Positions 13,943 to 25,833 of a DNA stretch of 64,000 nt are shown piece by piece. Both the position numbers and the translations under genes were made by a program. This DNA is from Alphaproteobacteria bacterium (GTDB lineage Bacteria > Pseudomonadota > Alphaproteobacteria > SP197). Below the pieces are notes generated by a model, which worked only from the letters and a program-made list of their open reading frames with translations, made no database searches and had not been told where the DNA came from. The stretch spans positions 352,001 to 416,000 of the forward strand of contig OZ219747.1 in the NCBI GenBank assembly GCA_964291265.2, read 5' to 3'. Every line of letters starts with the position of its first letter. Within the stretch, counting starts at the first letter, position 1.

Positions 13943-15103
13943 ATGACCGCTCACTTGCCCTTTCCACGCCAGGAACTCGATCGACGCCTTGACACGCTCC
14001 GCGGCGCGATGGCGGAGCGTGATCTGGACGGCATTCTCGTCGCCAGTCCGGAGAACATCTACTACCTCACCGGCCTCGATCACTGGGGATTCTTCGCGAC
14101 ACACGTCCTCGTCGTGCCGCGCGACGGCGGAATGCGCCTCGTCGCCCGGGCCATGGAGCGGATCACGATCACCAACCAGGTCGCCAACGCCGCCTTCCAT
14201 GGCCACTCCGATGGCGAGGAACCGGCGGACCATGTGCTCGAGGCGATGAGCCTTCTCGGAATTCGCGACGGCCGGGTCGCGCTCGAGGAGCGCTCCTTGT
14301 TTCTCACACCGCATACGGCAAGCCGCATCAAGGCCGGCGCTCCGGCGGCCGCATGGAGCGACGCCTCGGGCATCATCGACACCCTGCGGATCGTCAAGTC
14401 ACCGCTCGAAATCTCCTATACGCGCCGTGCCGCCGAAGCGGCGGATGCCGGTACGCTGGCGGCCATCGACGCCATTCACCATGGCGCCAGGGATCACGAA
14501 GTCGCTGGCGAATGCCAGCGCGCCCTGTGTCTGGCGGGCAGCGAGTATCCCGGTTTCGGACCGTTCATCAGGCCGACATCCAGGCTTGGCGAGGAGCACA
14601 CCACGTGGCGGGGCGAGACGTTTCGCAACGGCGATGCAGTGTTCCTGGAGATCGGTGCGGCCTGCCGCAAGTACCAGGCGCCCATGGGCCGGCTGGTCTA
14701 CGTGGGGAGCGCTCCTGTCGGCGTCGAACGCTCCGTCGAGATGGCCATCGACGCCATGCAGGCGATCGCCGCCGCGATCGTTCCGGGCGCGCGGGCCAGA
14801 GACGCCTATGCAGCCTGGCGGGATGTCGCAAGAAGCCGGGGGCTCGAAGGCTACGAGCGGCATCACTGCGGCTACCTGACAGGCATCGGTTTCCCACCGA
14901 GCTGGACCGGAGGCTCCATGGTCACGGGTCTTGCGCCCGATTCGGACCTGGAACTGAAGCAGGGCATGTCGTTTCACCTTCATTCGTGGTTCACCGACAC
15001 GGACTGTGTCGACTATTTCATCTCCGACTCCGCGATCCTGACGGAGAAGGGGTGCGAGATCCTCACCACGCGCTCACCCCAGACCCTCATCGTGCGCGCA
15101 TGA
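13943..15103 (+). CDS. M24 family (creatinase/Xaa-Pro-like) hydrolase
   Basis: PENIYYLTG, RIVKSPLE, GYLTGIGFPPSW motifs. Confidence 0.85.
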   Translation: MTAHLPFPRQELDRRLDTLRGAMAERDLDGILVASPENIYYLTGLDHWGFFATHVLVVPRDGGMRLVARAMERITITNQVANAAFHGHSDGEEPADHVLEAMSLLGIRDGRVALEERSLFLTPHTASRIKAGAPAAAWSDASGIIDTLRIVKSPLEISYTRRAAEAADAGTLAAIDAIHHGARDHEVAGECQRALCLAGSEYPGFGPFIRPTSRLGEEHTTWRGETFRNGDAVFLEIGAACRKYQAPMGRLVYVGSAPVGVERSVEMAIDAMQAIAAAIVPGARARDAYAAWRDVARSRGLEGYERHHCGYLTGIGFPPSWTGGSMVTGLAPDSDLELKQGMSFHLHSWFTDTDCVDYFISDSAILTEKGCEILTTRSPQTLIVRA

Positions 15104-15594
15104 GCATGACGTCACGTGAGCACCGGAGGCAACAGCCGGCACGAATGCGCCCGGCATCAAGGGGACCCTGACCGGGCAAGCGGCGCAGCGAGCGCTGCAC
15201 CAAGCGCATGCCATCGACCACGCGAATCCCTGCGGACGACTTGCTTCAGACGGACCCCCGTCGAGTCACACCACCGATCAGCCGGCACCGTCCCGGCAGG
15301 ATCGGAATTCGTTCCGCGGCCCGGGTCAGGGCATCCTTGCCACGCCGAGCCGCCTGCCTTCCACCGACGTGCACGTGTCCGCCACGGGATCGTTGCCACC
15401 ATCGAACTCGGGAGCATTGTCAGAAAATGCTGCCCGGAATTGACCCTTCTCGGGATCCGCTCCACCGGCCGCCCAGCTCATGCCGCTGCGACCCGCATGC
15501 GTGGGAAGGTCAGAGGAAGCCGCCGACATACGTGCGCGCGTGCAACCCATGGATGCCCGACGTCAGGAGGAATCATGTGGAATCAGGCGTGGGA

Positions 15595-15928
15595 CGGTCC
15601 TGACCGGGTTCCCCGGCGGTCCCTCTTGCGGCTCTGCAGCGTTCCCGCGACCCCGGACGGCCCGTCATGCCTCGCCAGTGGCGGCGTTTCCGGTATTGCC
15701 CCTGCTCCTTGGAACACAAGGCGCCGGCATCGACAGCTTTCGAGGCTCAATGGCGCTGCTTCGCCGCCCCCCTTGCGTACGCTTCACGACATGCGGTGCC
15801 GCACGCCATGCAACACTCGGTTCCGGCTGGTATTGACCCTTGCCGCGTCGGAGTTTCACCCGATGGATTACGTCGAGACGTTTCAGATTCGTCGCACCTA
15901 ACCTCCTCCAGGACTCTGTCTGGCGCAA
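15595..15928 (-). mobile_element. degenerate group II intron 5' fragment (domain I region)
   Basis: Minus strand starts TTGCGCCAG and carries GGGTGAAACTCC, CCAGCCGGAACCGAGT, GTGAAGCGTA, ATTGAGCCTCGAAA, GGGGTC and GGGAACC blocks; no D5/D6 or RT found. Confidence 0.55.
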
Positions 15929-16393
15929 GGCAGCACGCACCCGGACGGCAGGATCGGGCGCCGGATCTCTGCAGACCGGCGCGGCCTGGACCCGGCGCCT
16001 CGGCGAGCACCTGCCGGCGATCTTCCCCGGAGGGCGACTTCCAGGAGATGATCTCGCGCGCCGGTGAGACCGGGGCGGCGCTGCCGGTCCGGGCGATGTC
16101 GGGGACCGAAGCGCCAGCTGCTGTCCGGAACGCAGAAGCTCCGGGAAGGCGTCAGGTTTCTGTCTCGGGCTGCAAGCCAACCGGAAGAAGAAAAGGACAC
16201 GGACTTGAGTGTGCTGGATTGACAGGCCTCGATCCCGCCAACGACAGCGTCGACGGTGCCGGCCGCATCCGCATAGCGGCAGGGCGCGACTTCTCCGACG
16301 TCTCACCGACTGAGCGGAATTCTGCCAGGCAGGTGCCAGGCCGCCCTCGAAGTCAGGATCCGTCCCGTCCGCGCCTGACAGGGAACCGCTCTC

Positions 16394-22725: not shown

Positions 22726-22817
22726 CAGGACCATTCCTTTGTCGGGCCTGTGGATGGCTGATGTGGCAGGGACCTGCACGGTTGAGGCTCCCCGGGTTCA
22801 CTGCGGGCAGGTTTCAG
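22726..22817 (+). repeat. ~95-bp dispersed repeat, copy 2 (interrupted by IS66)
   Basis: Matches 20840-20932; continues as GGTTTCAGTGGCC at 25701. Confidence 0.8.
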
Positions 22818-22859
22818 GTAAGCGTTCGGCCACGCGGTGATTGTTGGTGATATTCACCG

Positions 22860-23161
22860 GTTGAGGATGCGTTTGGGAGGCGCACCACGTGGCGGTTCGC
22901 TGTTGGGTCCGAAGACGATGGGTCCGGGTCGGGTTGCTCGTCGTTGGGGTGGCGGCAGGGTGATGAGGCCGTCGCGGTGCATGGCCAGAAAGGCGACATT
23001 CGCCATCATGTTCTTGAGGCCCCGTCGGGCTTGTATCAGCCGGTCTCGCGGCAGAAGGCGCGGGCGATGGCCGCACGGGTGGGGTGCTGGGTGATCAGGG
23101 AGCGCAACAGCGCCATCTCGTGCGCGGTGAAGTCACGGCCGTCGTAACGGCACTCGATCAC
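22860..23161 (-). pseudogene. DUF4338 N-terminal fragment inside IS66
   Basis: RYDGRDFTAHEMALLRSL... with an in-frame TGA and a frameshift, then LAMHRDGLITLPPP. Confidence 0.7.
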
Positions 23162-25602
23162 CCCGGTTCCATGAGGTCCCTTCGACGCTCCGGGGGCATC
23201 GACCATGGCAGCCACGGGTCGAGGTCATCCGGCGGCTTGCCGCCGTTCTGCGCGCAGGCCTCAAGCCACTCATGAAGCCAGCGCCGAACATTGATGTTGT
23301 TCATGGCAAGGGTGCCGATGACCGAGTACATGATGGCGGTGAAGGCGGCGCCTTCCTCGCTGTCGGAGCCGAAGCTCAGCTTTCTCGCGGTCACCGCACC
23401 CCGGAGGGCTCTCTCGGCAAAGTTGTTGTCCATGGGCACCTGGGGATGGTCGACAAAGACGCACAGTCCCTCGCGGTGACGGATCAGGGAACGCAAGGGC
23501 TTCGCTTCGCGTGCACCCTCGGGCAAGGCGTCGAGTTCCTCCTGAGCCTGCCTGAACAGCGCCTCGACAGCCGCACGAAGGTCCTTCTGCAGGGCATTGA
23601 ACCTCGCTGACTGACGCTTGCGTGCGGGATCGTAGTGCTTCAGCCGTTGCCCATTCAGTGTGTAGATCAGCGCGATCCTGTCGAGCCACTTGTCGCACCA
23701 CTCTTCCAGCCCCTCCTGGCCTGCCGCAGCCTCGATCACATCGCGCCTGGAGTGCGCCCAGCAAAGGCAGAGGATCACCTTGCCATCAAGCTCACGCTCC
23801 AGTTTCCTGTAGACCACGTAGCGGTCGCAAACAAGGAAGACGACACCTTCGGTGGAGGCGAACAGCACCATGGCCACCCGGGCGCTGCGTGACGGGTCGA
23901 TAAGGAAGAAGACGGAGTCGGCGCTGACCGCGGTCCACAGCCAGGCCTTCTGCGAGCGCCCCGAGGCCTTGAGGGACTGGATGCGCCAGCTGGTCTCGTC
24001 GCCGTGGCGCACCGTCAGCCGGTTCTGATGATCGAGGATGGCCTGAGCGAGAGGCGCGAACATCGGCGTCATCTTCTTCATGCCGCCAGCGATCGTTCCC
24101 GGCGCCATCGGCAGTCCCTGGTCTTCCAGCCATCGCGAGACCCGGCGCAGGGGACGCAAGCAGGCGAAGCGCTCATAGAGCACGCATTCCCAGACACTGA
24201 TGCCGAAGGGGGTATTCGCAAGCAAGCGCAAAGGTGGCGGCGCGATGATCTCCGCAGGCGCCGACGAACACTGACAACCACGGCGCCAACGCCCACGTTC
24301 AATCCGCCGGATATGAGCCTTGACATGGACCTCCATGATCGAGGTCTCGTGGCTGCCGTTGGCCACATAGGGCTCGCCGCAACACGGGCACGTGCGCTGC
24401 GATGCCGGTGGATCATGGCGTTCGTGCTTCTCCTTGAGCTTCGGACGCGGAGTGCGCCCGTGGCCGCTCTTGCCGGGTTGCTGACCCCGCTTGTTCCCTG
24501 TGCCTTCCTTCTTCTTCCGCTTCTCGCTCTTCGACCCGAAGCGCGCCGTCGCGTGCTTGGCACGCGTCCCGCGGAGATTCCTCAGCTCGCTCGCCTGTTC
24601 AGCGTTCTTGAGCTTCAGAGCGTCCCTTTCCTGCTCCAGCGCCTCCGCTCGGGCCTGTCCACGCTTCACCTCCCGGCGAGCCTCCTTGAGCTGATCACGA
24701 GTGCGGTCGAGATGAAACTTGAATGTGCCCGCACGGGCACGGGCAGAATTCTTCGCACGGCGCAGGTCAGACGCGGTAGGGATGCGCATTGCTGCGCACC
24801 CCCCGCGCAGATCCGGACGTGGACGTTAATCCATCCGGCTCCTACCTCGGGTACTGGACGGCAAACCACTGGACTAGCCTGCGGCTTCCCGTATCCGATC
24901 CGCCGCCTGTGGCACGCTTGCCCGACACTGCGTTCGGTGCGTGCTTTAGCGTCCCGGATTCCCCTTGGTTGAGGCCCTTTCCTCCAGCGACTCCGCAGAA
25001 GCTAACGCTTCCTTGTTCGCCGCCTTCACAGGTACTACGGCCTCATCCGACTTCTTCAAACCGTACATCATAGGCTTCGGTTTTCTCCTTCCCCATGCGG
25101 TCCCGCCACAACCGGCGGGACGGTTTGAAGATCTCCCAGGGTCCCAACAGAAGGCGTGCGGACGTGCATGGGTTCTCTGACACCGCGGGGCTCGCCGACA
25201 TCTCACCAAATCGATGCCTGCGATGTTGCCTTCGACCAATGCGAAAGCCTCGGCACCCCGGATGATAGCTTTTTCGGTGCTCATTAGCCCTGCCCATCCG
25301 TACCGCTACCGACGCTTCGCCTGCCCCCTCGCGGGAACCGACGCACGGCTCGCGGAGAAACGTGGTTTGGTTACTCCTTCGTTCCAGGGGACTTTCACCC
25401 CCTACCTTCCGCCAGTTCGCCTGGCACACCGCATACGCGCTTCCGCCGCATCCGCACGAACCCGCTCCGCCTCATAGAGCGCACGCCAGTCAGGCGCCTC
25501 GCATGACAAGGCCACTGACGCCCGACATAGGCCGTCACCACCTCCCGTCAGCTGCTGTGTCGCTCCGCGCGTCTCGGCAAAAGTCTTCATGGCCTCGACC
25601 AT
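23158..25602 (-). CDS. IS66 transposase TnpC, intron-split: exon 1 25602(or 25590)-25430, exon 2 24769-23158
   Basis: FGSKSEK, CPCCG zinc ribbon, HGDETSW, VCDRY, LCWAHSRR and DNNFAERALR motifs; the joined exons read DAAEARMR-DLRRAKNSARARAG in frame. Confidence 0.88.
24770..25429 (-). ncRNA. group II intron (660 nt) with almost completely deleted RT ORF
   Basis: 5' GTGTG; D5 GAGCCGGATGGA-TTAACG-TCC-AC-GTCCGGATC with AGC triad and AC bulge; D6 ...GGGGGGTGCGCAGCAATGCGCATCCCTACCGCGTC; candidate EBS1 CGCAT at 25243-25239. Confidence 0.88.
24842..25071 (-). pseudogene. ltrA: group II intron RT/maturase remnant (N- and C-terminal stubs only)
   Basis: MMYGLKKSDEAVVPVKAANK...TKGNPGR*STHRTQCRASVPQAADRIREAA fused to the C-terminal-type FAVQYPR*. 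Confidence 0.8.
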
Positions 25603-25833
25603 AATCGAGACCAAACGAGTTTACCAGCACTTTCTCAGACGATAGTCAGCAAGACCCAAACCAACCAAAATCAGCCATCACCGAACGGCCGAACGCTTAC
25701 GGTTTCAGTGGCCTGACGACGGCCGTCCCGTCCCGACGTGATCGGTGGGATGCAAGGCAACACGACGGCGGCATGTGCCATCACCCCAATTGCGTGTAGT
25801 GTGCGGCCTCGCCGAAAGGAGAAGCCGTGAAGG

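Follow-up and report, generated by a model that had tools for sequence, protein, structure and literature searches.

Intron and host element

The stretch of DNA analysed here (the window) comprises 64,000 nt of contig OZ219747.1 (positions 352,001 to 416,000) from an alphaproteobacterium whose genome, complete-looking at 4.83 Mb, is held in two contigs, C1 and C2. On the minus strand of the window lies an insertion sequence (IS) of the IS66 family. Its single transposase gene, tnpC, is interrupted by a 660-nt group II intron from which most of the open reading frame (ORF) for the reverse transcriptase (RT) has been deleted (Table 1). Judging from its sequence and from the distribution of its copies, this RT-less intron, which sits in the sense strand of tnpC and is hereafter called the mini-intron, is likely to be spliced and to be inserted into IS copies already present, both with the help of the RT/maturase that 13 full-length relatives elsewhere in this genome encode.

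Table 1 Features of the intron-bearing IS in the window (EBS, exon-binding site; IR, inverted repeat).
Feature	Position in window	Strand	Basis
IS66-family IS with a single tnpC ORF and terminal IRs GTAAGCGTTCGGCC	22818..25700	-	Search for IRs and target duplications, Pfam, NCBIfam
tnpC exon 1, with TTG as start codon (25614) and two in-frame ATGs (25602, 25590); ends ...GCG CGT ATG CG	25430..25614	-	Continuous with exon 2 in the intron-free copy
Intron, 660 nt, non-autonomous	24770..25429	-	Rfam, fold, empty-site copy
Ribozyme core, domains 1-4	25171..25395	-	Rfam group-II-D1D4-6
Putative EBS2, AAGCU, intron nt 159-163, in the internal loop with most differences between mini- and full-length intron	25267..25271	-	Register from 5/5 pairing in the full-length intron and the C2:1375030 variant
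EBS1, CGCAU, intron nt 187-191, hairpin loop, complementary to the exon-1 end AUGCG	25239..25243	-	Covariation in two other variants
Putative EBS3, the A at intron nt 252, predicted partner of the T/U that opens exon 2	25178	-	Lone bulge of a domain 1 stem in the Rfam alignment; three-way covariation
N-terminal remnant of the RT ORF (MMYGLKKSDEAVVPVKAANK...), premature TAA at 24948..24946	24878..25071	-	ORF list, alignment to full-length relative
Domain 5	24810..24841	-	Rfam, sequence, fold
Domain 6, branch-point A bulge at 24777; intron ends ...CGCGUC at 24770	24771..24808	-	Rfam, sequence, fold
tnpC exon 2: starts T GAC CTG CGC, holds DDE_Tnp_IS66 and the stop codon	23158..24769	-	ORF list, Pfam

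Including the intron, the IS is 2883 bp long; an intron-free copy (C2:927480-929703) has 2224 bp. The window copy is flanked by the 8-bp target duplication GGTTTCAG (22810..22817 and 25701..25708). IRs of IS66 elements begin GTAAGCG and their target duplications are 8 bp long. The two 8-bp flanks are identical in 13 of the 15 IS copies that could be paired by exact IRs, and each pair has a sequence distinct from the others. Family membership follows from the Pfam domain DDE_Tnp_IS66 (PF03050; 1.8e-48 to 1.1e-49) in the transposase and from NCBIfam model NF033517 (IS66 family transposase), which scores 262 bits on the protein of the intron-free copy against a cut-off of 180. There are no accessory tnpA or tnpB genes upstream of tnpC, as the 2224-bp element holds only an ORF of 598 aa. 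This structure fits the single-ORF subgroup of IS66, which we take to be the one labelled ISBst12-like.

The natural intron-free copy joins the exons exactly at 25430 to 24769. Its ORF (L040:567-2363) reads ...AEARMRDLRRAK... and encodes 598 aa from the TTG, or 594 and 590 aa from the two ATGs. The two copies are distinguished by a single-nucleotide difference in exon 1, ~40 nt before the junction, with GCG in the window and ACG in the intron-free copy. Because a natural copy is joined at this point, the predicted splice junction is correct to the base. The first-pass annotation, made from the letters of the window alone, had proposed that removal of the insert restores the frame exactly and yields a TnpC of 590-594 aa, and it had named an intron-free homologue that fails to align across the junction as grounds for dropping the idea; the homologue aligns, and both lengths are recovered. 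After conceptual removal of the intron the 600-codon frame stays open in 8 of 11 aligned mini-intron-bearing copies, so the coding potential for transposase is present.

The mini-intron begins with GUGUG (25429..25425), in keeping with the 5' GUGYG rule. Its domains 1-4 match the Rfam model group-II-D1D4-6 (RF02005) over the entire model (positions 1-225) with 170.2 bits (E 2e-49; gathering score 49). Domains 5 and 6 (D5 and D6) align to Intron_gpII (RF00029) at 24843..24771 on the minus strand with 33.6 bits (E 1.2e-4 in a 1-kb search), short of the gathering score of 40. Of the two Infernal models recommended beforehand, the one for domains 1-4 thus gave a clear match and Intron_gpII one below its threshold. 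Read by eye, D5 has an AC bulge and the AGC triad, which faces a G-A, and its upper helix of 4 bp is closed by a UAAC loop. D6 has its bulged A at the 8th base counted from the 3' end. Both hairpins also form when the 660 nt are folded at minimum free energy (z = -5.05 relative to 20 shuffles). The 3' terminus is UC (TC in the DNA; ...CCCTACCGCGTC) in place of AY, as had been cautioned, and this end is common to all copies of the mini-intron lineage, which is evidently mobile. It is a derived change since the full-length relatives end in AC, relative to which an extra G-U pair lengthens D6 to the penultimate base.

Alignment to the full-length intron of 1919 nt (e.g., C2:1144144-1146062), with which the mini-intron is 94% identical on either side of the gap, shows a single deletion of ~1259 nt with its junction at about 24878 to 24877. 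Remaining from the RT are ~64 N-terminal codons, ended prematurely by TAA, and ~11 C-terminal codons. The insert with its GTGTG end, D5, D6, and RT stubs is thus found on the minus strand where it had been placed, and its description as a group II intron that lost its ORF and interrupts the transposase gene of an IS66-family element agrees with Rfam, Pfam, NCBIfam, and the alignment to the full-length relative.

Copies of the two introns in the genome

Intron-free IS copies, further copies of the mini-intron, and a full-length intron with a cognate RT had all been suggested as search targets, and all are present in this genome. The mini-intron occurs in 13 exact 660-nt copies, of which all but one are IS-borne. 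A further two IS-borne copies are altered, one being 5 bases short and the other carrying a 1973-bp element near its 5' end. All 14 IS-borne copies lie in the sense strand between IS nt 273 and 274. The copy outside the IS (C2:2219838) occupies the sense strand at the 3' end of a gene for an ABC-transporter ATPase (ABC_tran and oligo_HPY domains), where the target has CGGAAGCG.G.ATGCG, with T following the insertion point, in common with the IS site.

The full-length intron is found in 13 complete copies and two that are split by large insertions. It uses a different site of the same IS: thirteen IS copies (11 with complete and 2 with split introns) carry it between IS nt 1057 and 1058, always antisense to tnpC. 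Non-IS sites hold two complete full-length copies and one interrupted variant (C2:1375030). Introns are absent from just two IS copies, a complete one and another with 96% identity.

The 495-aa protein of the full-length intron scores 356 bits with TIGR04416 (group II intron RT/maturase; cut-off 300). Pfam detects only RVT_1 and a weak GIIM domain in it, and no endonuclease domain at E <= 0.001. The RT ORF is open in all 13 complete copies and in two interrupted ones, and the protein is identical in 12 of the 13; a maturase in trans, one of the two routes to splicing named in the first-pass annotation, is thus available. D5 of these 13 copies is the same as that of the mini-intron apart from AU in place of the AC bulge. 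The best plasmid-borne relatives of the RT are 55-59% identical and come from Skermanella, Burkholderia, Cupriavidus, and Ralstonia.

Several copies have histories of their own. A second copy of the ABC-transporter 3' end (C2:2242062-2249134; flanks 98.8% identical) contains an ORF-less intron that has diverged but retains the deletion junction, with 97.7% identity over nt 397-660, a 5.7-kb insertion, different EBS loops (CGUAAU and AAUCC), and 4 nt absent at the 5' end. Since this diverged copy shares the deletion junction, the ORF-less lineage predates the 13 identical copies. The only IS copy with both introns, the mini-intron sense and the full-length intron antisense, lies at C2:2663112-2667908; the unlike 8-bp sequences at its two ends suggest a possible origin by recombination between two IS copies.

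The 1973-bp element recurs in identical form ~9 nt into the 5' end of three introns, one mini- and two full-length (C2:2668812-2670784, 2594634-2596606, and 3032853-3034825), and there is a fourth copy at a distance of 1.2 kb from one of these. It seems to target the intron 5' end, and it has a 321-codon ORF beginning MGKVVAGIDVSK..., which presumably resembles IS110-family transposases. The two split full-length copies (C2:936305-953025 and 2129350-2142626) are interrupted at intron nt 241-250 (10-nt overlap); the inserts, 16.7 and 13.3 kb long, have only their last 2.3 kb in common (96% identical). This points to entry of a further mobile element into the intron and to later rearrangements among copies of that element.

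Target recognition

Differences between the mini-intron and full-length ribozymes cluster at nt 160-169, an internal loop of domain 1, at nt 192 on the edge of the CGCAU loop, and at nt 252, a lone bulged base in a domain 1 stem. Comparison of three intron variants with their targets (Table 2) supports EBS1 by covariation and places EBS2 and EBS3. The pairing between the loop CGCAT (25243-25239) and the end of exon 1, proposed earlier as EBS1 with its intron-binding site (IBS1), gains credence from compensating changes in both of the other variants.

Table 2 Predicted exon-binding sites and their targets in three intron variants. Targets are written IBS2-N-IBS1, then the first exon-2 base.
Intron	EBS1	EBS2	EBS3	Target	Pairs (EBS1 + EBS2 + EBS3)
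Full-length	CGCAUC	AGUCC	G	GGACU-G-GAUGCG then C	6 + 5 + 1
Variant C2:1375030	CGUACC	AAGCA	C	UGCUU-G-GGUGCG then G	6 + 5 + 1
Mini-intron	CGCAU	AAGCU	A	AGCG(C/A/G)-G-(U/C)AUGCG then U	5 + 3 of 5 + 1

Given its incomplete EBS2 pairing, the IS site would be a usable but imperfect target for the mini-intron. The conservation of CGGAAGCG between the IS target and the ectopic target may reflect recognition by the protein. A longer EBS2 register, pairing GCUAUC with GGAAGC at -15..-10 (5 of 6 pairs in the mini-intron), was dropped as it fails in the other two variants.

At window position 25178, where the plus strand has T, three contigs of a public sequencing run (X4, kind not on record) read G, which would make the EBS3 base C rather than A. 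Variants of other specificity thus appear to exist in related populations.

Strand bias and the spread of the mini-intron

We related the position of each copy to the direction of replication on C2, using the GC-skew minimum at 0.71 Mb as origin and the maximum at 3.31 Mb as terminus, with dnaA at 0.648 Mb. Nearly all copies of both introns have their sense strand on the lagging-strand template (Table 3). When the origin is moved over 0.648-0.78 Mb and the terminus over 3.25-3.31 Mb, 28-30 of the 32 complete copies remain on this template.

Table 3 Numbers of intron copies whose sense strand lies on the lagging-strand template.
Class	On lagging-strand template
IS-borne mini-intron copies	12/14
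Ectopic mini-intron copies	2/2
IS-borne full-length copies	11/13
Ectopic full-length copies	3/3
Intron fragments	7/7
All intron copies and fragments	35/39

The orientation of an IS copy relative to replication predicts which intron it bears. Mini-intron-bearing copies are co-oriented with replication in 12 cases and opposed in 2, and full-length-bearing copies in 2 and 11 (Fisher p = 4e-4). Because the mini-intron is sense and the full-length intron antisense to the IS, the IS itself shows no overall orientation bias. Both target sequences are kept in all 21 aligned IS copies once introns are removed, and only 1 of 19 intron-bearing copies has both introns. The alignment leaves out two mini-intron-bearing copies with further insertions (766932 and 2670785) and five full-length-bearing copies that are rearranged or truncated. 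These patterns favour the view that both introns retrohome into IS copies already in place, using the lagging-strand template.

The first-pass annotation had instead expected the intron to travel inside the IS. On that account the mini-intron entered a single IS copy once and was multiplied by IS transposition, with transposase from splicing or from intron-free copies. A distinct 8-bp target duplication at each mini-intron-bearing IS copy would agree with such a history, as would the near-identity of the exons of some copies (no differences between 3879564 and 1940343, one in each of two other pairs). On the other side, 13 mini-intron copies show no differences over 660 nt, whereas the 11 aligned hosts have 42 segregating sites in IS nt 3-2070, equivalent to 13.4 expected per 660 nt. 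Nearest neighbours among IS copies can bear different introns (full_1144144 and mini_2684898, with 2 differences; mini_1877199 and full_1911843, with 4), haplotypes interleave between mini-intron and full-length types, and mosaic haplotypes show that IS copies recombine. One identical copy of the mini-intron stands outside any IS. The pairing of only 3/5 at EBS2 makes repeated homing look less easy, and two copies have the orientation that retrohoming disfavours, yet multiplication with the IS predicts random orientation and accounts neither for the 12:2 ratio nor for its mirror image of 2:11. We consider hitch-hiking improbable as the general explanation, and the expectation that it was the main route is not upheld.

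Spread of the mini-intron mostly by retrohoming, with the RT of its relatives supplied in trans, is most likely the better description, and retrohoming of an RT-less intron would need such a supply. Riding inside the IS may account for the two opposite-orientation copies and could conceivably have produced the near-identical IS pairs.

Splicing

Spread by reverse splicing requires excised intron, from which we infer that some splicing has occurred recently. A different view holds that the mini-intron is a dead insertion which, ending in UC and without a maturase of its own, does not splice and inactivates tnpC, its identical copies having arisen through gene conversion between IS copies. Recombination among IS copies is evident from the mosaic haplotypes, and the sub-threshold D5/D6 score and the non-canonical 3' end are in line with loss of activity. 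No spliced RNA was seen in the runs described below, which have no cover of the exons, and RmInt1 of Sinorhizobium meliloti is reported to be poorly spliced in vivo and to block its host IS (PMC5894124, PMC4238363). Under gene conversion, however, one would expect neither a replication-strand bias nor an identical copy in the ABC-transporter gene. D5 and D6 also differ little from those of the full-length intron, of which there are 13 near-identical copies. We regard a dead insertion as very improbable.

The available RNA data comprise three runs, two of them labelled sponge metatranscriptome and the third coded 'organism A', each of which contains only 0.04-0.05 of the sampled words. Their contigs cover parts of the intron at 90-95% identity, with no exon cover and no joint of 25430 to 24769, and are uninformative on both splicing and habitat. 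One contig of run X4 skips exactly 24770..25429; it is not evidence of splicing, because intron-free DNA copies exist in the genome.

Several further observations weigh against a spliced and trans-mobilized mini-intron, besides the RNA data and the low D5/D6 score. The extension of D6 that comes with the UC end could slow the second splicing step, and EBS2 pairs with the IS target at only three of five positions. Two mini-intron-bearing copies (C2:766932 and 2579215) have the wrong orientation, and the intron-free IS copy at C2:927480 has a perfect, correctly oriented site that is still empty. Seven intron-bearing IS copies are absent from the alignment. The copies are also non-independent, with clusters at 1.91-1.93 Mb and 2.66-2.75 Mb, and given this clustering and the recombination of IS haplotypes, p-values are overstated. 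Finally, the replichores are unequal (2.6 vs 1.8 Mb), and origin and terminus were placed from GC skew and dnaA only.

Occurrence elsewhere

The 24-nt sequence across the deletion junction had no exact match in collections of genome and metagenome contigs, and a 25-nt pattern across the exon-1/intron junction had none in the genome contig collection, the window's own record being possibly excluded from each. By BLAST, none of 60 relatives gave a contiguous match to mini-intron nt 1-660, and matches of the full-length type, 89-91% identical, were found among them in three congeneric genomes and in one that belongs to another family. The last of these (G038, same class) has full-length-type introns at C1:2989574 and C1:549145 that are 91% identical to mini-intron nt 1-549. 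Some intron match is present in 12 of 32 genomes of the window's own family, so most lack it. Set beside this patchy distribution, the matches in another family hint at horizontal transfer of the intron lineage.

A second match to group-II-D1D4-6 lies in the window at 15640..15856 on the minus strand (93.3 bits), between two M24-type peptidase genes. There is no D5/D6 match within 15050..16000 at E <= 10 and no RT ORF nearby, and the stretch is single-copy in the genome. On these features it looks like a lone domain 1 remnant of a different intron lineage.

Possible consequences for the host element

On the proposed model, an IS copy pointing one way would receive the mini-intron, which is in principle removable from the tnpC mRNA, and one pointing the other way would receive the antisense full-length intron. 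The latter could not be spliced from tnpC mRNA, and we propose that tnpC would therefore be inactivated. Transposase from mini-intron-bearing copies would depend on splicing. If the mini-intron does splice, the supply from at least 8 IS copies would hinge on a maturase encoded elsewhere, linking two classes of mobile elements.

A more far-reaching reading is that two sister introns, the full-length one and its ORF-less derivative, have diverged at EBS1, EBS2, and EBS3 such that they recognize sites on opposite strands of one IS and share it between them. Because both would enter only the lagging-strand template, every new IS insertion would be colonized either way, the antisense full-length intron inactivating it and supplying RT, and the sense mini-intron imposing splicing control. 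Together they would act as a genome-wide, replication-coupled brake and switch on IS66 transposition. We offer this reading tentatively and think it unlikely on present evidence.

For annotation, the case implies that ~14 apparently broken IS66 transposase genes in this genome should be labelled as intron-containing genes and not as pseudogenes. The genome would also provide a natural example of an ORF-less group II intron living on the RT of its relatives, and of EBS divergence that opens new targets together with replication-strand-biased retrohoming. Such processes are mostly known from experiments in Sinorhizobium and Thermosynechococcus and can here be read in one complete genome, where IS copies with sequence-perfect empty sites serve as internal controls.

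Comparison with known systems

The arrangement seen in this genome was not found in a non-exhaustive search of the literature. Its elements have precedents. RmInt1 of Sinorhizobium meliloti, a group II intron without an endonuclease, has an insertion sequence, ISRm2011-2, as its target (PMC5894124). RmInt2, which resides in ISRm17, can enter either inverted repeat, and one of these two sites therefore always falls on the lagging template (PMC4615759). A retrohoming bias toward the lagging-strand template is reported for endonuclease-less introns, as is exchange of intron-encoded proteins (IEPs) between related introns (PMC5894124, PMC4615759), and RmInt2 retrohomes despite weak EBS2 pairing (PMC4615759).

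The introns described here resemble RmInt1 and RmInt2 in lacking an endonuclease, in having an insertion sequence as natural home, and in their lagging-template bias. Ectopic sites that carry the IBS motifs of the home site and tolerance of EBS2/IBS2 mismatches are further likenesses, and the idea that the intron limits the spread of its host IS has been raised there too (PMC5894124, PMC4615759, PMC4238363). With RmInt2 they also share the use of two opposite-strand sites on one IS (PMC4615759). They differ from RmInt2 in that each strand of the IS has an intron of its own, an ORF-less one in sense with its own EBS1, EBS2, and EBS3 and a full-length one in antisense. The host IS belongs to the IS66 family and not to IS630 as for RmInt1 and RmInt2; the RT has 495 aa, and matches on Sinorhizobium plasmids are <60% identical.

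Sr.md.I1 of Sinorhizobium medicae lies inside an ORF annotated as an IS66 transposase and, judged from its published description, is alike in its IS66-family host ORF, its mobility, and its lagging-strand bias, but it is full-length and encodes its RT (PMC4615759). The TeI3 introns of Thermosynechococcus elongatus are ORF-less introns that stem from a single deletion and are mobilized by the 'driver' IEPs of TeI4 (PMC2882425). They correspond to the mini-intron in the single ancestral ORF deletion, the N- and C-terminal remnants, and the disrupted frame of the remnant, and equally in the proliferation of an ORF-less lineage whose target specificity diverged and which relies on the RT of full-length relatives (PMC2882425). 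The T. elongatus introns, however, encode CL-type IEPs with an endonuclease, and most of them are located between genes or form twintrons (PMC2882425), whereas the intron here is aimed at a transposase gene with a replication-strand bias. Mobilization in trans was demonstrated experimentally in T. elongatus (PMC2882425) and is proposed in the present case. The case combines known precedents and is not a new mechanism. What sets it apart is the division of one IS between a full-length intron and an ORF-less derivative of it, each with its own EBS set and its own strand.

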